Shown here piece by piece: positions 4,025 through 17,999 of a stretch of DNA of 64,000 nucleotides. The notes below the pieces were generated by a model. The model was not told the DNA's origin. It made no database searches and was given only the letters and a program-made list of their open reading frames with translations. Origin of the DNA: Patescibacteria group bacterium (lineage in GTDB: Bacteria > Patescibacteriota > Minisyncoccia > Phycocordibacterales > Phycocordibacteraceae); NCBI GenBank assembly GCA_040390125.1, contig JAZJYZ010000001.1:506396-570395 (forward strand), written 5' to 3'. The translations under genes and the position numbers were made by a program. Each line of letters opens with the position of its first letter. Positions within the stretch are counted from its first letter, which is position 1.

Positions 4025-4414
4025 ATGGCAACAAAATATATTGAAACGATAGGAAGAAGAAAAACGGCATCTGCACGTGTTCGACTAACTGAAAACAGCA
4101 AACAAAATGTTTCTGCAAACGGTAAAACGTTGGAAGAGTATTTCCGCACCCCAGAATTAGTGCGTATTTCTGTTGCACCACTTTCACATCATGAAAAGAA
4201 ATTTTCTATCACGGCGGTACTTCGTGGCGGTGGCATTGCAGGACAAGCAGTAGCACTTTCCCACGGTATTGCTCGTGCAATAGTTGAGTTTGATGCAACG
4301 TCTCGAACACCTTTGAAGAAACTAGGACTTTTGAAGCGTGACCCTCGTGCTAAGGAACGTAAAAAACCAGGTCTCAAGAAAGCTCGCAAAGCAGCTCAAT
4401 GGAGCAAACGCTAA
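4025..4414 (+). CDS. rpsI: 30S ribosomal protein S9
   Basis: ...ETIGRRKTASARVRL...GGGIAGQAVALSHGIARA...RDPRAKERKKPGLKKARKAAQWSKR; canonical rplM-rpsI pair. Confidence 0.95.
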   Translation: MATKYIETIGRRKTASARVRLTENSKQNVSANGKTLEEYFRTPELVRISVAPLSHHEKKFSITAVLRGGGIAGQAVALSHGIARAIVEFDATSRTPLKKLGLLKRDPRAKERKKPGLKKARKAAQWSKR

Positions 4415-4657
4415 GCAGTTAGCGTTTGCTCCGGTTCAGCTTGCCTCCTTAGGCAAACGCTGAAACGTCCGTTGCCGAAACTTGTGAGGCAGGGCGTAGG
4501 AGGGCGAAGCGATAGAACAAAACTGCTTTTGTTTTTCTATGCACTTCGACAAGCGGAACGATGTTTCGACTTTTGGTCGAAACCGTGAGCTGGGCTCGCA
4601 AGTACTTAGTAACTTGTGAGGCAAAGGCTAACTGCTTAGCGTTTGCTCCGGTTCAGC
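4409..4657. repeat. Two copies of a 22-nt direct repeat (TTAGCGTTTGCTCCGGTTCAGC at 4419-4440 and 4636-4657), each abutting a 13-bp-stem palindrome (GAGCAAACGCTAA-loop-TTAGCGTTTGCTC) that spans the rpsI stop; internal 8-bp-stem hairpin at 4562-4586
   Basis: Read directly; loop of the palindrome is inverted between the two copies (GCAG vs CTGC); lies at the left junction of the putative island. Confidence 0.7.
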
Positions 4658-4759
4658 CCTGCAAAAAACAAAAAACCGAGAACTAACACCTGAAAGCTAA
4701 TTCACGCTTTCTCCACAGTTGTAATTTTGTATTTTCTGGAGTCCTAGCATAATGAAGTT

Positions 4760-7700
4760 ATGAAATATAGGGGACCTTCAAGCCCCGTTCGTATTAGTCT
4801 TTCAACAAGACTCCTTTCGAAAACACCAGCATTCATGTTGGCGTTTTTTATTTTTTTTGGAGTGCTCGTAGCACAAAATATATATGCCTTCGGAACCGGA
4901 GAGCCAACGGTATTTAATCCTAATGTGTTTGGTTTTGAATCATCGAATTTAAAAGTGGAGGGACCAACAGGTGCCCTCACTGAGCGAATCCCTATCGCTA
5001 TTCCTCCAGGGCGAAATGGGTTGCAGCCCGATATTACTCTCGAATACAACAGTCAGCGCACCGAAGACAGTATTGTCGGATACGGCTGGAGCTTATCGAT
5101 TCCCTATATCCAACGCATGAATAAGGCGGGTTCGCAGGATTTGTATTCTGCAGATGCCGTATTCAGCTCCTCTATGGATGGGGAGTTGGTTCAAGTTTCG
5201 ACCACGACAGTAACTCATCGTGCACGGGTGGATACGGGTGCTTCTAACTCCTATTCTTTCTCTGGAAACACGTGGACTGTCTATGACAAGAAAGGCACTC
5301 GCTATACGTTCGGGATGGACGATGCATCTCGTCAGTACGATTCTGCAACCACCTCAGCCAGAACCTACACATGGATGCTCAGCGAAATTCGGGACACGAA
5401 CGATAATACGGTCGTATTCCATTACACCAGAGATGGCAATCAGCTCTATCCGAGCCAGATAAATTACACCGGTTCTGCTGCAGTAGAAGGCCCGCTTGCG
5501 GTGACTTTTGCAACCAGCACGAGGCCTGATGTGCGGGAAAGCTACAAAACAGGCTTTAAGGTAACAACGAACTATCGGATTTCGGAGATAGATACACTCA
5601 TCGCCTCAAGCACGGTGGGGAAGTACCTCCTTTCATACGGCACGGGTAGTAACGGCGTACGCTCCCTTCTCACTAGTATTCAGCAGCAGGGATACGATGA
5701 AAATAATACGCTCTCATCGCTTCCAGCAATGACATTCGCATACGCAAGCTCCTCTTCTATGTTCTATACGCTGAGTAGCGGAGGTGACATCCTGCTTAAT
5801 TCGCAGGTGGAAATTCCATCAGACGTAAACGGTAATGGAAAGAACGATATAACAGGATTTTATTACAATCACAATAACTCTACGGTAGGTGCTGACTTAT
5901 ATATCGATCAGTCAACGACAGTCACCGGTATAACTCCACCTGACTATTGGGGTAGAAAGTCAGGTGCTAATCTCGTGCCGGAAGAGCGAGGTACAAGATA
6001 TTTAGATGTGAACGGAGACGGTAAGGCGGACGTTGTGAAAGGACTCGAAGATAATTACAATGCAACCACTACAAGAAGTCTGTATGTGAATAGTTACGCC
6101 ACCTCAACCGATGCATACAGTTGGACAGCATCAACAACATACACGGGCACAATTCCTTTGTTTGGGTATTCAAGTACGTACCTCACTTTGACATCTGGTC
6201 TCTTTGGCGAAATAAACGGCGATGGTCTACCTGATTATGTTATGGCACTGCCCGGATACACTGGCACGGAAACGTATCTCGGAAACGGCTCTACATGGAA
6301 TGCGACAACCACCACATTTGCTCCGATCTATAACATGCCCACCACGGCACCCACGGAAAATGCCTCACAGTTAATAGATATGAACGGCGATGGACTCGAT
6401 GATTGGGTTTATTCTATAGGCTCCAACACGTACGCACGTCTCAATAATGGAACTGGATGGAATGGCTCGGCAAGCAGTCAGTGGACTATCGCGACCTCAA
6501 CGCTCTATCAAACATCAGTTGGTGGGAGCACTGTCTACTACGATCGTGGAATTCGATTTATGGATATGAACGGTGACGGTTTACCTGACTTTGTTCGCTC
6601 ATACTATATGCCAACACATACTGCGTGTACTGGTGTTGCCCAAGGAGAAGTTGCAACAGTAAAGCAAGTATTGCTCAACACCGGAAATGGGTGGGCAACA
6701 TCCACTGCGTATACTCTTCCAGAATATATTGTGTATGGAGTTGTTGACTCCTCAAGTCCGTGTAATTTCACAGGTGTTTTTTCACACAGAGAATACAGTA
6801 ACTGGATAGGTAATGGGCAAATGAAGCAGGATGTGATGACTCGTAGCACATCTGCGAAAGGTGCTGAGAAAAGTATTATTTACACCCCCTCTACTCAATT
6901 AGGAACAAACCCTGAATTACCCGCCTCGCTTCTGGTCGTGACTGAAATGGGGGAAAGTGATGGTTTTGGTAACACTGCCACCACTTCATATCAATACTCT
7001 GGCGGAAAAGTTTACCTTGCAAACGGAATCCGCGATCGCAAATTTGCCGGTTTTGCTCTGTCGACCAGCACCTCACCGGATTCTGTTGCAGTAACATACT
7101 TCAGTCAAGGAACGGGACTTAATACGACGTTGGGCGAGCAAACGAATGGGTATGCACAGATTAATCGTCCTTTCAGAAAGGATCTCTTTGATCTTTCTAA
7201 TGTACTTAAAAAACACACCTATTACCGTTGGGATTCAAGTACGATTGCGAGTAGCACGTTCGTGGGACTTGGGCGCGAACTCATCCTTGATTATGCAACT
7301 GACGGCAGCACCCATCGTGATAAGGGAACTGATTTTCTCTATGCATCAACAACTAACGACCTTCTTCGGACTATAGAGTACGGGGAAGTGAGTGGCTCCT
7401 CGGACGGCACATTTTCAGACATTGGCACTGACAAACGCACCACGCTCTTTACGTATACTGCCTCGACCTCAGTCAATATGAGCGTACCTCGGAGCAAAAC
7501 TCTCTCTGATTACAGCAACGCCACGACGACCGATGAACGTTACTATTACGATACTCTTTCATTTGGGAACGTCACGAAAGGGAATAAGACCACAAGTGAA
7601 AAGTTGAAGTCGGGCATTACATACGTCAGTAGCCAAAATGCTTATAACAGCTATGGTCTTCCTACGTCTGCAACGGATCCTCGGGGCAAAGTGACTACGT

Positions 7701-10700
7701 ATAACTATGATTCCAAGAATCTCTATATTGCGACGTCCACCAACCCACTTTCGCAAACCACCCAGTTCTACTACGACTACTCGCTAGGCAAGCCAAAGCA
7801 AACTATAGACCCAAATGGACGCATCTTTGAAACAACATACGATGGAGTTGATCGGCCGCTGGCGGAAAAACAGCCGAATATTTCGAACCCAACTTCTTTA
7901 GTAAACAAGAAAACCTACGCATATACTGACACCATTGGTTCACGCAAAATTATTGAAACAAATTATCTCGATGGTTCGACTGATTTCACTTTTCACACCT
8001 ATCTCGATGGCCTCAACCGCCCCATACAAACAAGAAAAGAAGCTGAAACAGCCGACCAGTTCTCGGTCAAGGATTTTGTATACAACAACGCAGGACTTCT
8101 TAAAAAAGAATCTCTACCATATTTCTCGGGAGGTTCTTCCAAAACATCTGCTTCAGCAACTGACGCATTGTATTCAAGATACACATACGATGCTTTGAAA
8201 CGCCCTTTAACTATCGCCAATGCTGTCGGCACTACCACGAATACCTATGGTGCATGGATAGCAACTACGACCGATGCTCTCGGAAATGCTCGTGGTCTCG
8301 CCTATGACGCATTCGGCCGATTGGTGCAGGTGACGCTTCCTGATACGGGCAACGTAACCGCATACACGTATGACACTGTTGGCAATCTGTCATCCATCAC
8401 CGATGCGAATGCGAATGTCCGCAACTTTACCTATGACGCTCTTGGTCGGCGACTTACTGCGGAAGATGTACATGCCGGAGGAGACGGAACATACGGCACA
8501 TGGAGCTATGTCTATGACGCTTCGGGCAATCTTGCTTCGACCACCGATCCGAAAAGTCAGCAGGTGGATTATATGTACGATGACATCAATCGTCTCCTTA
8601 CCGAAAACTATACCGGCCAAGGTGGCACGGAAGTCTCCTATGCGTACGACTCTTGCACGGAAGGCATTGGACGCCTATGCATCGCAACCTCAACAGATGC
8701 CATATCTTCGTTTACCTATAACGCACTCGGTTTAACCGCAAGTGAATCGAAAAACATTGCTTCGACTGTATATCTCACTTCTTATGCGTATGATCGCCAG
8801 AGCAACATCACTGGCATCGTCTATCCTGATAATTCGGAAGTTGAATACTCATACAATACGGCGGGTTTGCTCGAAAGTGTCGCACAAAAAGAAAGTGGCG
8901 ATTCCTTCCTGAATCTCATATCAGATTTTGATTATACTCCAACTGAAAAAGTCACTTTCAAGGCGTTTGCAAATGGGATTCAGAGTACATATGACTATGA
9001 TGCAAACACTTTATACCGACTCGCCAACATCTACACTTCCGCTTCTTCAACTGAAGGTGGGGGAGGAATGGGATTTGGTGGAAGCTTCTGGAGCAATATT
9101 GCTCGTGCCGTAGAAAATTTCCCGTTTGCCCTCCGAGGCAAGCTTGCATTTGCAGAGGAGCTTTCAGAAATACCGGCAATACTCGAAACTGAATTGAACC
9201 TTGAAAATCCCAGTTCTTCAGAAACTCCTGAAGAACCAGTTTTGCCTGAAGTGGCAGAGCTTGCGGTTCCTGAAGAATCAATTCTGTCCGAACCAATAGA
9301 AGAAGAAAATGCTCCGCTCACGCCTCCTGTTGTTGAAATGTTTGAATCGACTTCAACGGAATCGATGATTGAATCAGAAACTGAAGAAGTGCCGGCGGTA
9401 ATCCAGGAAGTAGAGGGAGAAGTATTGGTGGAAGATGAAGCGTCTCCGAAAACTGAAGTTGAGAAAGACCTACCTTTTGAAACGATTAGAGCGGCTGTGG
9501 AAGGGAGGTCCGCTTCCGAACGAGCTAGCATTAAAGGTCAAGAAGTTGCAAAGATTTCTTCCATCCCTCGAACACCTCGAAAAGGGTATGACATCGAAAT
9601 AGTTTCAATGGAACCCATCGATGGTGGTATTCAGGTGTTTGTAAGAGCTTGGAAGAATTGCAAACTGCTTTGCAATTCTTCCGATCCTGCCATGCAGGAA
9701 GAATCCCTGTCGGAGACAGATTCTAGGAGGGACGATGACATGCAGATAGGATTCGGTCTCGACGGCTCCGTAGACATGGAGCGTTTCCGCATCTTCAATC
9801 CACCGATTCTTGTTGAAGACGAAAAGGGCGATATCGTTCGAAATTGGGAAGATCCTGATAGTAAAAAATTGGAAGAACACCGGTTTCGTGAAGATCCAAA
9901 AGAAGCCCTCCTTCAAGTAATCGAGCAGAATCTTTCCATTATGAAAAATATCCATACTGACGGCAAGATTATTCCAGAAAAACGAGGTAATACGACTGAC
10001 ACCTATTATCCAGATGCAAATCCTGAAAGCACGTCAACCGATGGATTTACCGACGACGATAACAACTGGAACTATCACCGGAGTTGGGCACAGGTGCATG
10101 ACGGGGACGGTACGCAGGGGCGACAATCTGCTAATGCCACAAGCGAATATCTCTCTGTGCTGGCCGACAAGGGCAATGATGGAGGGCTATACTATCACAT
10201 GCGACGTACTCACATTTTGTTTGACACAAGTGCCATTGGAAGCGGAGACATTGTGTCGAGTGCAACTCTGTCCATCTACGGCGTATCCAAATCCGATGGT
10301 CAAAGCGATAGCCTATACGTAACCGATACCAATCCGGCCAGCACTACGGAGATTGTTGCAACCGACATGGACAATGTCACCATCCACGGCGCAACCGCAT
10401 ATGCTACACCAATAACTGTTGCAAGTTTCTCAACGAGCGGATATAACAACTTCTCGTTGAATTCAAATGGACTTGCTGCCGTCAATAAAATAGGGATTAG
10501 CAAGTTCTCACTGAGACTCGGACTTGATTTCAACGAAACCTCTTCTCATGATTCCCCGCCCGGAAGTGCAGATAATTACCTCTCAATGTACGCTTCAGAC
10601 CAGTCCGGCACTGCAAACGATCCGAAACTTGTTGTCGAGCATACCGCCGCCCCCAACTCGACCTCCACCCCTCCGACCAATCTTCTCGCTGAAGGACAGA

Positions 10701-12496
10701 CTAATCCACCGAACATTACCGACCCGACGCCTGAGTTCTCTGCGATCTATAACGATCCTGATGCTACCGACTCAGCAATGAACTATAAAATTCAAGTTGC
10801 TACGTCCTCTTCGTTCACAAGCCTCAAATGGGACTCAGGCAAAACCGCCCTCGGTGTCCCTACGGCCCAAGGCTCTCGCATCGCTGACATTTCATACGCC
10901 GGCTCCGCTCTCGCATCCTCCACCACCTACTACTGGCGCATAAAATTCTGGGACGTGGCTGATGCAGAAGGTGAGTGGAGTACCGCAACTTCCACTTTCG
11001 CCCTCGCCTCAAGCTATACACCACCCCCTGCTCAGACAGGAGGTATCCAGAACATTTCTTTCACCTACGACGCTGTTGGTAATATCACACTTCTTACAGA
11101 ATCCGCCACTTCAACTGGCCTCTATCGAAGCGTCACCTACACGTATGACACCCTATATCGCTTAACGAACGCTAGTACGACCGTTGCCTCATCAACTCCA
11201 TACTCTCGTTCATACACATACAGCAAGCTTGGCAATATGCTTTCGTCCGACCTCGGTGCGTATGCATATGCGGGCACAGGATACGCCAACTCCCATGCAG
11301 TGACGTCGATAGGAAACGGCATTGCCACTACTACCTATGGATATGACAACAATGGGAACCTCATCACTTCCGGCTCAAACACCTACGCGTGGGACTACAG
11401 GAACCACCTCACCTCCACAACAGTTGGCGGTATCGTTACCTCCTTCGGATATGATCACACGGCTAATAGAATGTTTAAATCCACAAACTTCGCCACCACC
11501 ACAACCCCCAATAAGTACTACACCACCACCTCAGCCACAACCACCAAAAACATATTCACTCCCGGTGGAGAGTTGATTGCCACAATCATCGGTACAGGCG
11601 CAAACGCAACGACCACGTACGTACATACAGATTGGTTAGGGGGGACGAACGTAGTCACGAATGAAGATTCAGACACTGTTGAAGTTGAAGATCCATATCC
11701 GTATGGGGCATCGAGAATAAGCGAGACGTATGGCGTGTCGAAAAACCAACGACAATTTGCTGGAACCGAGAGGGATAGTGAAGTGAATTTGGACTACATG
11801 ATTAATCGTTTTTACGATCCGTCCCGAGGACAATTTATCTCGGAAGATCCTACATTTTGGAGACGACAGAATCTCGAAAATCCACAGAGTTTTAATTCTT
11901 ATTCGTATGCGGAAGGGAATCCTATAAATAAAAAAGATCCTGAGGGACTTGAAGCATATGGAGTCGGTATAACTATAGGAGCTGAGGGTGGGCTTGGAGT
12001 TTTTGCAGGTTTCACATTTAGTGCAGGGCTTAGTTATGTACACAATCCAGATACTGACCAACGTTGGTTTGCGGCACCAGTTAGCTTTGGTAGTACAGCA
12101 GGAATATTTGGATCTAGTGTCAGTTATCCGAAATCTGATATATCGCCAACAGTAATGGGGGCATATGCCGGAGCTGGTTTAAATGTAAATTACTCGCCCA
12201 ATGCAAAAACACCGAATGATATCCGTGGTGTTCAAACCAGCTTAAATTTCAATATTCCCGCCGCTTCGGTTTCTATACAAGGTGGGCAAACAAATTCCCC
12301 GACAATATCAGGCGGGCTAGGAGTCAAAGGAGTTGGATCTGGAAGTATGTATTCTGTGCAAACTTGGGCACCAGCTGTAAGTTTTAGTACAATCAAGACT
12401 GTTACAAGCAGTATGGTAGGCTCATTGCAGACAGCTATTAATCAACTTCAACAAAAAACAAACACGACCAGTAATCAGAGTAAGAAAAAACCATGA
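4760..12496 (+). CDS. Giant (2578 aa) surface/secreted polymorphic toxin: N-terminal signal/TM anchor, SpvB/TcB-like N-domain, FG-GAP/VCBS-like Ca-binding beta-propeller repeats, RHS/YD-repeat shell interrupted by an acidic low-complexity + FN3-like insertion, RHS core ending DPEGL, C-terminal Gly-rich toxin tip
   Basis: Motifs: ...PIAIPPGRNGLQPDITLEYNSQ...GYGWSL (SpvB/TcB-N); DVNGDGKADVV, EINGDGLPDYV, DMNGDGLDDWV, MDMNGDGLPDFV (FG-GAP-like); many YxYDxxGNL YD repeats; core ...RQFAGTERDSEVNLDYMINRFYDPSRGQFISEDP...NPINKKDPEGL; single uninterrupted ORF. Confidence 0.85.
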   Translation: MKYRGPSSPVRISLSTRLLSKTPAFMLAFFIFFGVLVAQNIYAFGTGEPTVFNPNVFGFESSNLKVEGPTGALTERIPIAIPPGRNGLQPDITLEYNSQRTEDSIVGYGWSLSIPYIQRMNKAGSQDLYSADAVFSSSMDGELVQVSTTTVTHRARVDTGASNSYSFSGNTWTVYDKKGTRYTFGMDDASRQYDSATTSARTYTWMLSEIRDTNDNTVVFHYTRDGNQLYPSQINYTGSAAVEGPLAVTFATSTRPDVRESYKTGFKVTTNYRISEIDTLIASSTVGKYLLSYGTGSNGVRSLLTSIQQQGYDENNTLSSLPAMTFAYASSSSMFYTLSSGGDILLNSQVEIPSDVNGNGKNDITGFYYNHNNSTVGADLYIDQSTTVTGITPPDYWGRKSGANLVPEERGTRYLDVNGDGKADVVKGLEDNYNATTTRSLYVNSYATSTDAYSWTASTTYTGTIPLFGYSSTYLTLTSGLFGEINGDGLPDYVMALPGYTGTETYLGNGSTWNATTTTFAPIYNMPTTAPTENASQLIDMNGDGLDDWVYSIGSNTYARLNNGTGWNGSASSQWTIATSTLYQTSVGGSTVYYDRGIRFMDMNGDGLPDFVRSYYMPTHTACTGVAQGEVATVKQVLLNTGNGWATSTAYTLPEYIVYGVVDSSSPCNFTGVFSHREYSNWIGNGQMKQDVMTRSTSAKGAEKSIIYTPSTQLGTNPELPASLLVVTEMGESDGFGNTATTSYQYSGGKVYLANGIRDRKFAGFALSTSTSPDSVAVTYFSQGTGLNTTLGEQTNGYAQINRPFRKDLFDLSNVLKKHTYYRWDSSTIASSTFVGLGRELILDYATDGSTHRDKGTDFLYASTTNDLLRTIEYGEVSGSSDGTFSDIGTDKRTTLFTYTASTSVNMSVPRSKTLSDYSNATTTDERYYYDTLSFGNVTKGNKTTSEKLKSGITYVSSQNAYNSYGLPTSATDPRGKVTTYNYDSKNLYIATSTNPLSQTTQFYYDYSLGKPKQTIDPNGRIFETTYDGVDRPLAEKQPNISNPTSLVNKKTYAYTDTIGSRKIIETNYLDGSTDFTFHTYLDGLNRPIQTRKEAETADQFSVKDFVYNNAGLLKKESLPYFSGGSSKTSASATDALYSRYTYDALKRPLTIANAVGTTTNTYGAWIATTTDALGNARGLAYDAFGRLVQVTLPDTGNVTAYTYDTVGNLSSITDANANVRNFTYDALGRRLTAEDVHAGGDGTYGTWSYVYDASGNLASTTDPKSQQVDYMYDDINRLLTENYTGQGGTEVSYAYDSCTEGIGRLCIATSTDAISSFTYNALGLTASESKNIASTVYLTSYAYDRQSNITGIVYPDNSEVEYSYNTAGLLESVAQKESGDSFLNLISDFDYTPTEKVTFKAFANGIQSTYDYDANTLYRLANIYTSASSTEGGGGMGFGGSFWSNIARAVENFPFALRGKLAFAEELSEIPAILETELNLENPSSSETPEEPVLPEVAELAVPEESILSEPIEEENAPLTPPVVEMFESTSTESMIESETEEVPAVIQEVEGEVLVEDEASPKTEVEKDLPFETIRAAVEGRSASERASIKGQEVAKISSIPRTPRKGYDIEIVSMEPIDGGIQVFVRAWKNCKLLCNSSDPAMQEESLSETDSRRDDDMQIGFGLDGSVDMERFRIFNPPILVEDEKGDIVRNWEDPDSKKLEEHRFREDPKEALLQVIEQNLSIMKNIHTDGKIIPEKRGNTTDTYYPDANPESTSTDGFTDDDNNWNYHRSWAQVHDGDGTQGRQSANATSEYLSVLADKGNDGGLYYHMRRTHILFDTSAIGSGDIVSSATLSIYGVSKSDGQSDSLYVTDTNPASTTEIVATDMDNVTIHGATAYATPITVASFSTSGYNNFSLNSNGLAAVNKIGISKFSLRLGLDFNETSSHDSPPGSADNYLSMYASDQSGTANDPKLVVEHTAAPNSTSTPPTNLLAEGQTNPPNITDPTPEFSAIYNDPDATDSAMNYKIQVATSSSFTSLKWDSGKTALGVPTAQGSRIADISYAGSALASSTTYYWRIKFWDVADAEGEWSTATSTFALASSYTPPPAQTGGIQNISFTYDAVGNITLLTESATSTGLYRSVTYTYDTLYRLTNASTTVASSTPYSRSYTYSKLGNMLSSDLGAYAYAGTGYANSHAVTSIGNGIATTTYGYDNNGNLITSGSNTYAWDYRNHLTSTTVGGIVTSFGYDHTANRMFKSTNFATTTTPNKYYTTTSATTTKNIFTPGGELIATIIGTGANATTTYVHTDWLGGTNVVTNEDSDTVEVEDPYPYGASRISETYGVSKNQRQFAGTERDSEVNLDYMINRFYDPSRGQFISEDPTFWRRQNLENPQSFNSYSYAEGNPINKKDPEGLEAYGVGITIGAEGGLGVFAGFTFSAGLSYVHNPDTDQRWFAAPVSFGSTAGIFGSSVSYPKSDISPTVMGAYAGAGLNVNYSPNAKTPNDIRGVQTSLNFNIPAASVSIQGGQTNSPTISGGLGVKGVGSGSMYSVQTWAPAVSFSTIKTVTSSMVGSLQTAINQLQQKTNTTSNQSKKKP

Positions 12497-12497
12497 T

Positions 12498-13016
12498 ATG
12501 AAAAACCTATATAAGCGATTGTTTGATTATAGTGAGAATATTCAATTTGAATGCGTTGTTTCCATGGAAGAGGCATTAAAGCGATTAGCAGAAAAACTAC
12601 AAAAGCAGAGTGTCTTTATATTTTTAACTTCTACCGTATCGCATCCGTCGCTTATGGGGCAAATAACAAAAAATTCAGTTAAATTGCACAGAGTCGTTCC
12701 TTTTCTGGGCAATATTTATAAGCCAATTTTTTACGGAAGATTTAATAACAAAAATGGAAAAATTGTATTAGAAGGAATGTTTACAATGAGTCCCATCGCC
12801 AAGATCTCAACCCTCCTTTTCTTAACAATCTTTGTGGCTATTGAAATAATTATGCTTCCAGTAGGATTTGCTCAAGCTGATCCATCTGCAATATTATTAC
12901 TATTTGCGATTCCTATTATTGCCTTTCTTCCAGTCTGTTTCCTATTTCTTGGTAGGCGTTTAGCTAGGAATGACATGGAATGGATTTCAAATCACATCAA
13001 ATCAACACTAGCCTGA
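12498..13016 (+). CDS. Candidate cognate immunity protein (C-terminal 2-TM membrane protein)
   Basis: Starts 2 nt after toxin stop; hydrophobic helices ...ISTLLFLTIFVAIEIIMLPVGF... and ...ILLLFAIPIIAFLPVCFLFLG...; position immediately 3' of RHS tip. Confidence 0.5.
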   Translation: MKNLYKRLFDYSENIQFECVVSMEEALKRLAEKLQKQSVFIFLTSTVSHPSLMGQITKNSVKLHRVVPFLGNIYKPIFYGRFNNKNGKIVLEGMFTMSPIAKISTLLFLTIFVAIEIIMLPVGFAQADPSAILLLFAIPIIAFLPVCFLFLGRRLARNDMEWISNHIKSTLA

Positions 13017-13046
13017 AATAGTGTTCTTCTCTAACTACAATTAATC

Positions 13047-13442
13047 ATGAACTTCGGTGACGTAAAAACTATACTTGAATCTCTCACCGAGTTGGTTAAA
13101 AAAACTGCTACTCTCGATCTGCAAGAAAAGATTGTGAATTTGCGTGAGTACATTATTTCTATTAAGGACGAAAATATTACATTGAAAGAAGAGAATCAGG
13201 CTCTTAAACTCGAACTTTCTACAGAGCATGATTTTTTTCTTAAGAACGGTTTGTATTGGAGGGAGGGCGATCAAGTGCCATTTTGTCAAAAATGCTTGGA
13301 TGGTTCCAAAAAACGCATTCATCTCCAACCTTGGAATACCACCGGAGGATGGAAGTGTTTTGAATGTACTAGCTATTACAACCCTCAGCGTGGTGCGGAT
13401 GTTCATGTCTTCAGACCGAATAGACAAAATCCTGCTCGTTAG
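13047..13442 (+). CDS. Hypothetical protein with coiled-coil N-terminus and C-terminal CxxC...CxxC zinc-ribbon-like motif
   Basis: ...PFCQKCLDGSKKRIHLQPWNTTGGWKCFECTSYY...; no family recognised. Confidence 0.4.
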   Translation: MNFGDVKTILESLTELVKKTATLDLQEKIVNLREYIISIKDENITLKEENQALKLELSTEHDFFLKNGLYWREGDQVPFCQKCLDGSKKRIHLQPWNTTGGWKCFECTSYYNPQRGADVHVFRPNRQNPAR

Positions 13443-13525
13443 ATGAGTATTTCTTTTCATAGACACCGTCAGTATCGCCACAATCGGGTAAGTCCAGTTA
13501 ATTCAGCGAAGACTTTTGGTAACTC

Positions 13526-14932
13526 ATGAAATCAGTGAAAATCCTTCGCCGTGTGCGAGTTACCGTAAAACCCCACACTTTCTCACTGGATCCAATGTGG
13601 TCTGCTTTCCTCCAGTACAAGGGGAGAGTGGTCGAAAGCCCACAAAGGAACGCCACAAATCTCTTAAGCCCGTACTGGCCGCCCAACAGGGAGAGTGCAT
13701 TCTTGTTCCCAGAATATGGAGAGGGTGTCGATGCAGTTCCTACTACTACCTATGGATATGACCAAAGCGGCAATTTGACGAGTGCAAACTCAAATCTCTA
13801 TGGCTGGGATTTTAAGAACCGAATGGCATCAACTACGGTTGGCGGCATCGTTACCACATTTGGATACGACCACGGGATCGAGCGGGTTTTCAAGAGTACG
13901 AATTTCGCAACTACAACGTATCCTTCGAAATATTATTCCGCTACTAGTGCAACGACCACCAAGTATGTATTTGCTGGAGATGAGCTGATTGCGACCATTA
14001 CCACTTCTGGAGCGACATCAACAAAACAATATATTCATAATGACCATCTCGGAGGAACGAACGTCGTGACGGATGAAGACTCTAACACAGTGCAGGCTCT
14101 GGATTACTATCCGTATGGCAGTGAGAGGATAGACCAAAACTACGGGGGTTCTCCGTCTCAAAAAACTTACATCGGACTTTATTCAGATTCGGAAACAGAT
14201 CTTCTGTATGCCAAAGCGCGATATCTTGAACCTTCACGCGGGCAGTTCATAAGTCAGGATCCGGTTTTTTGGGAAATCGGGTTAACTCAAGACGGGCGAA
14301 ACGCTCTGATTAATCCACAGGCAGCCAATTCGTATTCGTACGCAGAAGACAATCCAATCACAAAGAAAGATCCAGACGGTAGATGCGCAGGTCCGTTTAT
14401 AGCAGCTGCGCCGGTATGTCTCGGCGTAGCATATGGAATAATAGAAACTGCGGCCACTAATCCTGATGCAACTTTCGGTCAGTATGTAGTTGGTGCAGTT
14501 AGTGGAGGTATCCAAGGTGGATTGCTCGAAGCAAGAATAGTTGGAGGGGCAATATTAGGATTTGGTTCCTCGTTAGCTCAAGATTATGTTGGTGGTCAGT
14601 CACTAAACTTCCAAAGGGCTTTCGTTGCTGCAGGTTCCAATGCAGTTGGAGCTGGCACTATTAAATCCGCTGTTAGTGGGGTTACAAATGTAGCCGCACA
14701 AGCAGGAGGTACGCTTTCTTTAAACGCTGGTTCTAGAGCTGTTGCTTCTGGGATTTCTGGAGGATATCAAACAGTTACTAACGTAAGCGCACAACGATCT
14801 TTTGCACCAGTAATTTCGCAACCTTCGAATTCTAATGCTTCAAAATCCACCTCGCCCTCATCGAGTGGAGGTGGGTTTGTTGGGCAAGTAGTGAATTCAA
14901 TTAAAAGTTTCGTATCTAGCATATTCAAATGA
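13526..14932 (+). CDS. Orphan RHS C-terminal cassette (RHS core fragment ending DPDGR + alternative Gly-rich toxin tip)
   Basis: ~65% aa similarity to aa ~2190-2390 of the giant RHS protein (TTTYGYDxxGNL...STTVGGIVT.FGYDH...KSTNFATTT...DHLGGTNVVTDEDSNTV...YYPYGSERI...SRGQFISQDP...NSYSYAEDNPITKKDPDGR) followed by unrelated Gly-zipper-like C-terminus; N-terminal 70 aa of ORF have no homology so the annotated ATG may not be used. Confidence 0.7.
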   Translation: MKSVKILRRVRVTVKPHTFSLDPMWSAFLQYKGRVVESPQRNATNLLSPYWPPNRESAFLFPEYGEGVDAVPTTTYGYDQSGNLTSANSNLYGWDFKNRMASTTVGGIVTTFGYDHGIERVFKSTNFATTTYPSKYYSATSATTTKYVFAGDELIATITTSGATSTKQYIHNDHLGGTNVVTDEDSNTVQALDYYPYGSERIDQNYGGSPSQKTYIGLYSDSETDLLYAKARYLEPSRGQFISQDPVFWEIGLTQDGRNALINPQAANSYSYAEDNPITKKDPDGRCAGPFIAAAPVCLGVAYGIIETAATNPDATFGQYVVGAVSGGIQGGLLEARIVGGAILGFGSSLAQDYVGGQSLNFQRAFVAAGSNAVGAGTIKSAVSGVTNVAAQAGGTLSLNAGSRAVASGISGGYQTVTNVSAQRSFAPVISQPSNSNASKSTSPSSSGGGFVGQVVNSIKSFVSSIFK

Positions 14933-15387
14933 AATATAAACCTAGATTAATTTGGAGTGGATCCATTGCAAGTGGACTCTTATTAATAATCTTGCTGGCT
15001 CTTAATGGCTTTCTTAGTAATCCGCTTTTATGGACAGATAAATTCGCCCTCTTACCCTTTGTTTTACTAATATTTATGGGTCTACACGTTCTTTTTGGAA
15101 TGTATGTTTTCTTTGATGAATCAAAATTATGCCGCGTGGATTTCTTTATATGGAGGAGTTGCATCGCTATCGCGGATATCCAAAGTGTTGTATACCAATC
15201 CTCCTTAATCTTTGGAGGACCAAATAAAACCGTTTCTGTTTTTGATGCAAAAGGGAAGAAGGTATTTATGGAGAGCATGCCTTTTGGCAAAGAAATGCAG
15301 AAGGATTTAATCGATAAACTTATACGCCTCAACCCCTCTATTAGATTGAATGAAGATGCCGAGGCACTTCTTCGTGAAAATAAATGA
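14929..15387 (+). CDS. Candidate immunity protein for orphan RHS tip (multi-TM membrane protein)
   Basis: ATGA overlap with orphan toxin stop; TM helices ...IASGLLLIILLALNGFL... and ...ALLPFVLLIFMGLHVLFGMYVFF... Confidence 0.5.
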   Translation: MKYKPRLIWSGSIASGLLLIILLALNGFLSNPLLWTDKFALLPFVLLIFMGLHVLFGMYVFFDESKLCRVDFFIWRSCIAIADIQSVVYQSSLIFGGPNKTVSVFDAKGKKVFMESMPFGKEMQKDLIDKLIRLNPSIRLNEDAEALLRENK

Positions 15388-15630
15388 TTCATACACACCG
15401 ACGATACCGCCACGGCAGTACAAATCCAGCTCAAATCTTGCAGATTGTTGGTAAGTCACTCTGTATCTCATCAGGTTGCTTTACAAGGAAGCTGGGCATT
15501 GTAGAGTTTGTTTACTATGGCAGATAACATAGACCTAAAAAGGACATCCAGCTTTACTTTAGAGGCAACAGATATAGTCATTCGCGAAGAAAATGGGGTC
15601 AGCCACCATTTTCAGTGATACGATACCTCC

Positions 15631-16308
15631 ATGCCTCGCATCCAGCGTACCGACATTGGTAATCATGTCTATCATGTTTTAAACCGTGCCAACGCACGAG
15701 CACAGATTTTCGACTCCAAAGAGGACTACCTTCTCTTCGAGAGCATTCTAGAAGAGGCAGTAGAGAAGTTTGATATGCGTCTTCTTGCCTATTGCCTCAT
15801 GCCTAACCATTGGCATTTCGTGCTCTATCCCCGAGCCGATGGTGACCTCGCCGCCTTCATGGGTTGGCTCACCAATACACATACCAGACGGTGGCATGTA
15901 GCCAAGAAAACCATCGGTCACGGACATCTCTACCAAGGACGATATAAATCATTTCTCTGTCAGACTGATTCGCACTTCTTGACTCTAGTGAGATACGTTG
16001 AGAGGAATGCCAAAAAAGCAAACCTCGTGCGGCGGGCGGAAAATTGGAAGTGGTCCAGTGTGTGGAGAAGAGAGGAGGGAACACTAGAACAAAAGAAAAT
16101 CCTTACGGAATGGCCGGTATCAATGCCACCACACTATCTTGCTCTACTCAATGAACCGCAAACTAAAGCAGAAGAAGATGCTCTGGAGCGGTCAATTGCA
16201 AAAAATATACCATTCGGGAGTGAGAAATGGCGTGATGTTATTATTAAAAAGCATGGTCTTGAACAAACACTCCACTCGGTCGGAAGACCTCGAAAGAATG
16301 GTGGCTGA
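15631..16308 (+). CDS. REP-associated tyrosine transposase / IS200-IS605-like Y1 HUH transposase (TnpA_REP family)
   Basis: ...HVYHVLNRANARAQIF...LLAYCLMPNHWHFVLYP... (HUH motif H-W-H + hydrophobic) and downstream Tyr-containing region ...RYVERNAKKANL...; 225 aa. Confidence 0.75.
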   Translation: MPRIQRTDIGNHVYHVLNRANARAQIFDSKEDYLLFESILEEAVEKFDMRLLAYCLMPNHWHFVLYPRADGDLAAFMGWLTNTHTRRWHVAKKTIGHGHLYQGRYKSFLCQTDSHFLTLVRYVERNAKKANLVRRAENWKWSSVWRREEGTLEQKKILTEWPVSMPPHYLALLNEPQTKAEEDALERSIAKNIPFGSEKWRDVIIKKHGLEQTLHSVGRPRKNGG

Positions 16309-16516
16309 CCCCATTTCTGACCCCATTTCCCAAGAAAGCTCGCAAAGCAGCTCAATGGAGCAAAAGATAGCTTCGGCATATTTTGGAGAATCTTACGATG
16401 TTGAAGGTGACTTCGCAGAGTTTTCCTCTGTCTGGCATCCCCCTCAACCCTCATTTCCTGAAAAAATTTCCTTCGCACTTCCACTCGCTGAAGTCAGTAG
16501 TAATGCTTGACAAATA

Positions 16517-17071: not shown

Positions 17072-17441
17072 ACATTGTGTTTTTGGAAATGGCGTCAGCC
17101 ACCATATTTTATGATTAACACCCTCACCATTTCTGCCCCCACTTTCTGAATTGTAGTTAATTATCCTGGGTATACTGAAACCCAGTATGATGTTGGAAAA
17201 TTTAAACAAATTAAAAATTGGAGAGCAATCTCAAATACTTAATTTTCAAAATTCGAAGCCTACCAAAAACGAACTCCATGTATCGTACGGAGGAAGTATT
17301 ACATCAAAAGAGATGTTGCAAATTGAAGGCGGTCTTGCTGTAGGAGTTCTTATGCTCCTCTTTATACATTTTTTAAAAAGAGATTCTCCAAAAAATAAAT
17401 AAATTCATTGACGTTTCCTAAAATTTAGGGCATATTATAAA

Positions 17442-17999
17442 GTGATGAACACTGAAGACGATGTTGTTATTGAGCCAGATGACGAAAGCTTGGAGGGGGA
17501 AGGGGCGTCAGCTACTAAACTTTCAGCTCAAATAAAAAAAATAAAAAGTGAGCTTGAAAAAGCCCTAAAGGAACGTCAAGAGTATTTAGATGGCTGGCAG
17601 AGAGCAAAAGCTGATTACGTAAATATCCGTAAGCGTGCTGAAGATGAACGCCAGGCACTGGTTAAGGGTGCTTCTAGGGGACTTGTTGAGGCACTACTGC
17701 CGGCTCTCGACAGCTTTGATCACGCTATGAGCTCAGTTGAGGGTGGTGGGGCCTGGATAGAGGGTATAAAAAACACGCACAGCCAACTCATGAAGGCACT
17801 CGAAGCAGAAGATGTGAGTGCGTTTGACCCTTTGGGGGAAATTTTTGACCCGAATGTACATGAGCCGGTTGAGACAGTTGCAGTAACAAGTGAGGTAGAG
17901 GATAATACAGTAACTAAAGTCTACCAAAAAGGGTACACCCTTCATGGTACGATTATCCGCCCAGCACGTGTTGCGGTTGGACATTATCAAAATAGTTGA
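17442..17999 (+). CDS. grpE: nucleotide exchange factor GrpE
   Basis: ...YLDGWQRAKADYVNIRKRAEDERQ...; C-terminal beta-domain ...VTKVYQKGYTLHGTIIRPARVAVG; precedes dnaK. Confidence 0.9.
   Translation: MMNTEDDVVIEPDDESLEGEGASATKLSAQIKKIKSELEKALKERQEYLDGWQRAKADYVNIRKRAEDERQALVKGASRGLVEALLPALDSFDHAMSSVEGGGAWIEGIKNTHSQLMKALEAEDVSAFDPLGEIFDPNVHEPVETVAVTSEVEDNTVTKVYQKGYTLHGTIIRPARVAVGHYQNS

Follow-up and report, generated by a model that had tools for sequence, protein, structure and literature searches.

A 64,000-nucleotide (nt) stretch of the genome of a Patescibacteria group bacterium (GenBank assembly GCA_040390125.1, contig JAZJYZ010000001.1, positions 506,396 to 570,395 of the forward strand; hereafter the window) probably holds an RHS (rearrangement hotspot) toxin island in which a main rhs gene is followed by a stored, diverged orphan cassette delimited by a repeated element, E1. 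In this reading, both genes end in toxin tips of new families that would act on membranes, and each tip is paired with an immunity protein bearing two transmembrane helices. The island occupies an 11.9-kb block between a ribosomal-protein/rpoA operon and grpE-dnaK-dnaJ, and consists of one giant gene (4760..12496) and several small ones. An orphan rhs-CT (C-terminal)/immunity cassette is a well-known architecture; the phylum in which it is found here has been little studied, and both tip families and both immunity families are new. Patescibacteria, also called the Candidate Phyla Radiation (CPR), are tiny bacteria, many of which are believed to inhabit the surfaces of other cells, and little is known about how they attack hosts or rivals.

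The main rhs gene and the orphan cassette

The features of the two cassettes are as follows, with coordinates in the window, proteins given in amino acids (aa) and all features on the forward (+) strand.

4760..12496 (+), main rhs gene, 2578 aa: N-terminal signal/anchor, SpvB, FG-GAP, YD repeats, Ig_Rha78A_N, RHS-associated core and tip1
11315..11950 (+), main-gene core end, homologous to the orphan and ending in DPEGL (11936-11950)
11951..12496 (+), tip1, 181 aa: 8.8% charged, Gly/Ser-rich, predicted to be beta-rich with a C-terminal helix; new family
12498..13016 (+), imm1, 172 aa: soluble N-terminal part and two C-terminal transmembrane helices; presumed tip1 immunity, starting 1 nt after the main stop codon
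13047..13442 (+), orf131: coiled coil followed by a CxxC...CxxC zinc ribbon, between imm1 and E1 copy A
13441..13526 (+), E1 copy A, from the orf131 stop codon: blocks TACCGCCACGG, GTAAGTCCAG and TTGGTAACTC
13526..14932 (+), orphan rhs open reading frame (ORF), 468 aa, intact: E2-derived N-terminus, 218-aa core fragment (13730-14383) and tip2
13527..13729 (+), E2 or "leader": the 68 N-terminal codons of the orphan that are unmatched in the main gene
14384..14932 (+), tip2, 182 aa: 6.6% charged, 45% Gly+Ala+Ser, hydrophobic first helix, GxxxG(xxxG), predicted to be all-helical; new family
14929..15387 (+), imm2, 152 aa: two N-terminal transmembrane helices and a C-terminal domain; presumed tip2 immunity, with an ATGA overlap with the orphan
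15382..15458 (+), E1 copy B, from the imm2 stop codon

The core fragment of the orphan is a clear homologue of the end of the main core. Orphan residues 69-286 (nt 13730-14383) aligned to main residues 2186-2398 (nt 11315-11950) with a BLASTP E-value of 7e-80, and a global alignment gave 129 identical residues out of 211 (61%) with one 7-aa indel. Both copies exceeded the 32.5-bit cut-off of TIGR03696 (NCBIfam Rhs_assc_core), with E-values of 9.5e-16 for the main copy and 2.8e-14 for the orphan, and they end at equivalent boundaries, DPEGL at nt 11936-11950 and DPDGR at 14369-14383. An initial annotation of this DNA had proposed a core copy of about 200 aa, put by eye at ~65% identity, together with the equivalent boundary, the ATGA overlap between the orphan and the ORF at 14929..15387, and the classical RHS order of full-length rhs, immunity gene and 5'-truncated core fragment with another tip and a second immunity gene. 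All of these held, with the copy extending over 218 aa at 61% identity. The same annotation had placed a membrane ORF (12498..13016) 2 nt after the main tip; the membrane ORF is there, and the gap is 1 nt. Two transmembrane helices were predicted in each of 12498..13016 and 14929..15387, in line with their earlier description as membrane proteins.

Upstream of its core fragment the orphan differs from the main gene, as its codons 1-68 showed no homology to it and no hydrophobic N-terminus. Because the orphan lacks both a signal peptide and a shell, it would be unable to deliver tip2 on its own, although imm2 would still protect against neighbors that deploy tip2. The orphan would be a stored cassette, namely a 5'-truncated rhs that retains 218 aa from the end of the core and has a different tip and its own two-transmembrane-helix immunity gene.

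The main protein, on the other hand, has a hydrophobic N-terminal signal/anchor at aa 18-46 and YD/RHS repeats (Pfam RHS_repeat, E 1e-27 over six stretches; NCBIfam YD_repeat_2x, E 3.2e-16), with the RHS-associated core at aa 2313-2397 in Pfam/NCBIfam searches. The same searches found no PAAR or VgrG domain in it. The protein would form a YD-repeat shell and, judging from the signal/anchor, be exported by the Sec pathway. By analogy to solved Rhs/TcC shells, it would enclose tip1 and free it by autoproteolysis at DPEGL, and the adjacent imm1 would guard the producer against tip1. Both core copies retain the Asp residues of ...(E/Q)DP... and DPxG, which we take to be the catalytic residues of Rhs aspartyl autoproteolysis. 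The YD shell is broken by ~650 aa (aa ~1430-2100; 9050-11050), after which the YD repeats restart; this insertion is made up of an acidic Pro/Glu-rich linker, a region without assignment and Ig_Rha78A_N (aa 1972-2077).

A scan of species-representative genomes with the core end gave 79 loci, nearly all of them from Patescibacteria/CPR metagenome-assembled genomes, with best identities to loci outside the window of only 55-62%, which puts the window's own species outside the set of representatives. Fetched metagenome contigs and genome loci with homologues are named L001, L002 and so on below. At least 20 of the 79 Patescibacteria RHS loci had two to four core ends on the same strand, spaced 1.4-3 kb apart. 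Orphan arrays are thus common in Patescibacteria RHS genes, as judged from the window and these 79 related loci.

The two tips and their membrane partners

Beyond the boundary the two tips, described as different in the initial annotation, are unrelated, and kinship between them was rejected at an hhalign probability of 1%. Neither matched a family in Pfam (E <= 10), NCBIfam (E <= 0.01), or PHROGs and PADLOC (E <= 0.1), and PDB sequence searches with the tips gave nothing below E 0.09. No homology of sequence or fold to a characterised pore-forming toxin appeared in Pfam, PDB sequence searches or Foldseek with the tip1 model, nor did the Pfam/profile searches return an enzymatic domain for either tip, again as expected earlier. 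Searches of billions of proteins turned up three to five relatives per tip, five of them in the case of tip1. The two tip families and the two immunity families have no database annotation and are very rare.

The composition of the tips is distinctive. Charged residues made up 8.8% of tip1 and 6.6% of tip2, compared with a mean of 24% in 26 other window proteins, and Gly+Ala+Ser accounted for 36% and 45%, respectively. Hydrophobic residues followed an alternating (beta) periodicity in tip1 (z = 2.3 vs. shuffles) and a helical periodicity in tip2 (z = 3.0 vs. shuffles). In tip2, G37 and G41 (GxxxG) are invariant, and G45, which extends the motif to GxxxGxxxG, is present in four of six relatives. 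Tip1 therefore looks like amphipathic beta strands and tip2 like amphipathic helices with a glycine zipper. The glycine-zipper-like character initially proposed for the orphan tip stands, with GxxxG conserved in tip2, whereas tip1 is predicted to be beta-rich and not a helical glycine zipper. Given this composition, the amphipathic periodicity and the membrane-bound partners, the tips most likely insert into or disrupt the cytoplasmic membrane of the target, a plausible mode of action that we infer from sequence features.

Among Patescibacteria tips, 33 of 110 contained no more than 10% charged residues, and most of these were followed by a two-transmembrane-helix ORF of 140-165 aa; the window tips belong to this commonest local class. 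That about a third of the tips are low in charge, Gly-rich and paired with two-transmembrane-helix proteins points to membrane attack as a favored strategy.

Several points weigh against membrane action. First, neither tip has a confident structure: AlphaFold2 modeled tip1 as about ten strands with a C-terminal helix (mean predicted local distance difference test [pLDDT] score 50, predicted template-modeling score 0.49) and tip2 as all-helical (mean pLDDT 42), and these pLDDT values are too low for a fold assignment. A Foldseek search of the tip1 model against the PDB gave nothing with E < 0.04, and the best TM scores went to the small closed beta-barrels of Rhodococcus Vap proteins (TMt 0.46-0.56), a hint only with a model of such low confidence. 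Second, the polar residues Q66, D67 and N133 of tip2 are invariant and might mark an active site instead of a pore. Third, toxins that act outside the cytoplasm of a single-membrane cell would in any case be expected to have a membrane-anchored immunity protein.

The strongest competing explanation is that the tips are not pore formers but small enzymes or ligand-binding toxins with targets in the cell envelope (lipid II, peptidoglycan or the surface layer), and that the membrane partners present an extracellular neutralizing domain. The invariant polar residues of tip2 speak for this alternative. Moreover, imm1 and imm2 each contain a soluble domain of ~85-95 aa, and a related large tip superfamily with imm2-like partners keeps the block PG-R-x-P-N...F-(Y/F)-T-G-x-H. 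However, the tips had no match in Pfam, NCBIfam, PHROG, PADLOC or PDB sequences, their charge content is extremely low and their amphipathic periodicity is strong. We therefore consider envelope enzymes the less likely reading, with perhaps a quarter of the weight, and we retain membrane insertion as the preferred account of the tips.

The large superfamily just mentioned (L008-L086) is defined by a CPxC...GAG(A/V)G start in addition to the PG-R-x-P-N block, and comprises two subfamilies that matched at an hhalign probability of 99.6%; its partners are imm2-like two-transmembrane-helix proteins. Membership of tip2 in this CPxC.../GAGVGAIGG superfamily was tried and dropped, since the hhalign probability was only 23%. 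Examples of the superfamily are located at:

L008, position 1513
L022, position 6639
L025, position 6645
L014, position 6188
L015, position 8148

The small ORFs behind the tips are presumed to be immunity genes on the strength of their recurrence with the tips in unrelated metagenome contigs. In an otherwise different neighborhood at L002, a tip2 homologue with 58% identity shared an ATGA overlap with an imm2 homologue of 54% identity, and at L006/L007 a 54%-identical tip2 on a 411-aa orphan was overlapped by a 38%-identical imm2 homologue. Likewise, imm1 homologues with 37-40% identity directly followed tip1 homologues at L003, L004 and L005. Each tip and its partner are thus co-inherited at various levels of divergence and in various contexts, and therefore behave as toxin-immunity modules. 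More broadly, iteration with a hidden Markov model found imm2-like proteins directly after RHS tips at 23 of the 79 genome loci. The only recurrent Pfam signal among them was the bacterial PH domain bPH_4, in 7 of 21 proteins with a best E-value of 0.0016 (sub-threshold); imm2 itself scored 13.3 bits (E 0.092) against bPH_4 (PF06713), below the 22.9 cut-off.

State and origin of the orphan

The orphan is not decaying: it has evolved under the same constraint as the main core, with no sign that this has relaxed. This follows from an ORF that is intact over 468 codons, from core motifs that have been kept and from the absence of excess unique substitutions: in a relative-rate test with eight outgroups, 13-20 unique changes fell in the orphan core and 19-28 in the main core. 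A foreign origin of the orphan core, as stated, was rejected, since none of the fetched loci is closer to it than the main core (59% for the main core vs. at most 55%). Since the orphan is intact, its rate is not raised and the main core is its nearest relative, its source would be a related but diverged functional RHS. At ~40% divergence from the main core, the orphan therefore looks like a cassette of a diverged RHS lineage that has been displaced or imported, rather than a recent duplicate primed for RecA-mediated swapping. Such a cassette would have served a functional RHS of that lineage until fairly recently, and would have been displaced downstream or imported as the present tip1 cassette moved into the expressed position.

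Two findings are less comfortable for this account. The two core copies are mutually closest in our data set, which would also fit an old duplication in place. In addition, the orphan has its own ATG and the frame is open through E2 in four loci, so independent translation is possible.

It is also conceivable, though unlikely, that the toxin part of the orphan is a relic and that selection acts only on imm2, which would shield the cell from neighbors that deploy tip2. At L003, L004 and L005, the tip1-type orphans are frameshifted and the imm1 homologues are intact, which suggests that immunity was kept after the toxin decayed, and L006 has extra imm2-like genes without a toxin. By contrast, the window orphan is intact over its whole length, keeps its Rhs_assc_core motifs and has no excess of unique substitutions, and 106 of 110 Patescibacteria tips are full length (>=140 aa). 

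Somewhat less probable again is that the orphan is a stand-alone gene, translated from the ATG at 13526 or from the E1 ATG at 13443, whose product acts in the producer together with imm2 in a toxin-antitoxin-like manner. There is a precedent in Salmonella, where an orphan Rhs was reported to act inside the producer with its immunity partner in just this way (PMC7043789). Moreover, the window ORF is intact and has an ATG, and in the window as in L014, L068 and L153 the frame upstream of the core fragment runs through E2 without a stop. The missing Shine-Dalgarno motif at the orphan says nothing here, because no such motif was found upstream of any of the 27 start sites inspected in this genome (ribosomal-protein, chaperone and RHS-locus genes; e.g., 842, 1229, 4025 and 18126); Shine-Dalgarno-led initiation seems not to be used. 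However, E2 shows no third-position bias in its closest pair (8/6/9 mismatches by codon position between L153 and L068), the position of the ATG is not conserved, no promoter-like site lies within E1 or E2, and E1 is also present without a following orphan (window copy B and L006). A promoter and terminator scan of 11900-16400 gave matches no commoner than in shuffled sequence.

Finally, the initial annotation had claimed that homologous recombination swaps the tips. If the locus were an active tip-switching module, RecA-dependent recombination would fuse tip2 to the main delivery part often enough for selection to act. The gene order is the classical one for such a system, and the same tip families occur at the first and at later positions of arrays. 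Furthermore, eleven pairs of neighboring core ends in other Patescibacteria arrays were 90-100% identical over 58-494 nt (e.g., 99.8% over 494 nt at L035 and 92% over 492 nt at L012), and the mechanism is therefore plausible for the class.

At the window locus, however, the proposed pairwise alignment of the two core regions gave clear protein homology (61%) but a nucleotide identity of only ~58% across the 633 aligned nt, in which the longest exact match measured 21 nt. The best BLASTN segment of this pair, 69.7% over 132 nt, had the lowest identity among 37 pairs with detectable nucleotide similarity. RecA-dependent exchange between copies this diverged should be very inefficient. Homologous recombination needs nucleotide identity, so active switching is unlikely here. 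The main and orphan rhs copies of Salmonella LT2, for which recombination was shown experimentally, are far closer at 95% identity over 522 bp (PMC3967940). Chimeric contigs were not found either: a scan of JGI metagenome contigs recovered no tip2, hence no full-length RHS with tip2 and no chimeric junction, and L001, the only other contig with the orphan, has the same arrangement. The claim of tip swapping is thus not supported for this pair, and active switching is the least probable of the explanations considered for the orphan. For the RHS field, this is a caution that the orphan arrangement alone is no proof that switching is possible, and that nucleotide identity needs to be checked.

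Cassette borders, island edges and known systems

E1 is ~80 nt long, and its copies A and B are direct repeats with 64% identity that bracket the orphan-imm2 cassette. Searching with nhmmer, we found further copies, so that five genomes including that of the window carry E1, and the majority of copies either directly follow an immunity gene or precede an orphan fragment. Copies left out of model building were recovered at E-values of 2e-7 to 3e-3, the copies being diverged. These positions suggest that E1 is a cassette-boundary signal. Because orf131 is placed between imm1 and E1, it would form part of the main cassette; its sole match was PHROG 1244 (phrog_1244, function unknown, E 2.3e-7). 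E2 was likewise found elsewhere; in L014 and L068 it is followed by orphan core fragments and abuts the same junction as in the window, ...SGEGV.A..TTT(Y/F)GYD. A structured RNA was tried as an explanation for E1 and E2 and rejected, as the RNAalifold consensus was weak (-0.8 and -7.2 kcal/mol) and there was no Rfam match. Copies outside the window are located at:

E1, L153: 967-1051
E1, L006: 2785-2843 and 3447-3487
E1, L014: 9561-9618 and 11394-11458
E1, L068: 8116-8168
E2, L153: 1052-1199
E2, L014: 9620-9729
E2, L068: 1823-1936

A more far-reaching and, in our estimate, improbable reading of these borders is that Patescibacteria RHS tips circulate as bounded cassettes (E1/E2 leader, last ~215 aa of the core, tip, immunity gene and E1), whose gain, loss or activation would take place at the conserved E1/E2 borders instead of through RecA recombination inside the core. 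The IS200/RAYT-like element, which is often found at the end of these arrays, could take part in this, and E2 might also provide the orphan with a start of its own, allowing it to be expressed independently. If true, this would amount to an integron-like cassette system for toxin tips.

The right-hand part of the island contains two further features:

15591..16316 (+), IS200/RAYT-like element with a Y1 transposase gene (15631..16308) between the arms of a perfect 20-nt inverted repeat
16323..16369 (+), repeated rpsI 3' end (89% identity with 4367-4413), which marks where the 11.9-kb RHS island ends on the right

The inverted repeats of the transposase element lie at 15591-15610 and 16297-16316, and the repeat is found a third time at 17087-17106. 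The protein matched Pfam Y1_Tnp (E 6.8e-17), and its H60-W-H62 and Y122 are invariant in 13 homologues; at 59 bits against a cut-off of 80, it is not an equivalog-level member of the NCBIfam RAYT family. Homologues were found downstream of the last cassette and on the same strand at 13 of the 79 Patescibacteria RHS loci, whereas an RHS core end was nearby in only 5 of 80 metagenome transposase loci. An obligatory partnership of RAYT with RHS arrays was therefore rejected in favor of an enrichment without a fixed module. The conserved cassette-border elements and the recurrent transposase are the unexpected features of this locus.

Three other loci illustrate the company such elements keep. L066 has two 757-bp RAYT-like copies (901-1657 and 4244-5000) that are 99.7% identical and each have terminal inverted repeats; they flank an orphan RHS fragment, a small transmembrane ORF and an imm2-like gene, an arrangement that resembles a composite transposon. 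At L038 (292-1277) and L093 (141-1120), a RAYT-like gene begins ~57 nt past an RHS core end that is cut at model position ~88 of 120, as if the element had been inserted into the core.

The island as a whole lies in a cellular chromosome. The ribosomal-protein/rpoA operon (S13, S11, S4, RpoA, L17, L13 and S9) ends at 4414 of the window, and the start of grpE-dnaK-dnaJ lies at 17442. The whole RHS block is bracketed by a direct repeat of the final 47 nt of rpsI, the gene for ribosomal protein S9; the second copy lies 6 nt past the right inverted repeat of the transposase element and preserves the reading ...KKARKAAQWSKR*. Because this rpsI end recurs at the far edge, the whole block appears to have been inserted at the 3' end of rpsI. 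A conserved neighborhood with rpsI or grpE was rejected, as this adjacency is absent from other RHS loci. In the rpsI-rhs intergenic region there is also a 29-nt inverted pair (4401-4429 and 4621-4649; 97% complementary), each arm of which holds a palindrome.

The closest known counterpart of this locus is the rhs-main/rhs-CT-orphan pair of Salmonella Typhimurium LT2 (Koskiniemi et al. 2014, PMC3967940), in which a full rhs and its immunity gene are likewise followed by a 5'-truncated core end with a different tip and its own immunity gene. The Salmonella copies, at 95% over 522 bp, recombine, in contrast to the ~58% identity and 21-nt run found here. The window also differs in being from a Patescibacteria-type genome and in having a main protein without PAAR or VgrG, whose N-terminal signal points to Sec export. 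Enterobacterial orphan cdiA-CT/cdiI and rhs-CT/rhsI modules (Poole et al. 2011, PMC3150448) are similar in forming tandem cassettes after the main gene, with tips that are polymorphic past a conserved peptide boundary. Here, by contrast, the boundary is DPxG(R/K/L), and the cassettes are bordered by E1, which lies outside the core (the enterobacterial modules were not checked for such an element).

Membrane-acting tips have precedents in several delivery systems. Tsi5, the immunity protein of Pseudomonas aeruginosa Tse5 (RhsP1), is located in the membrane. Tse5 itself, as it is cited in PMC11630599, has a pore-forming, membrane-depolarizing tip, and its RHS shell with a non-enzymatic membrane-targeting tip is what we propose for the window. 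However, the window tips share no sequence similarity with it (no PDB sequence match), and Tse5 uses a type VI secretion system, of which there is no sign here. The CdiA-CT(EC93) ionophore toxins with membrane CdiI (PMC11630599) resemble tip2 in being helical, glycine-zipper toxins of ~150-200 aa that are polymorphic and have a specific integral-membrane immunity protein. They are carried on a CdiA delivery scaffold to which no homology was detected, and tip1, unlike them, is predicted to be beta-rich. A third group is the glycine-zipper LXG toxins of Firmicutes, which include TelE. Like the window tips as we interpret them, toxins of this group such as EsxX combine membrane-depolarizing glycine-zipper tips with membrane immunity in single-membrane bacteria (PMC12744356). 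By contrast, they are substrates of a type VII secretion system on an LXG scaffold without an RHS shell, and no homology to them was detected.

The transposase at the end of the island also has a parallel. Rhs elements of E. coli carry an IS-like H-rpt gene just past the core extension and immunity region, encoding a DDE-type H-repeat protein. In the window, the corresponding place is taken by a gene of the Y1 (HUH) IS200/RAYT type with 20-nt terminal inverted repeats.

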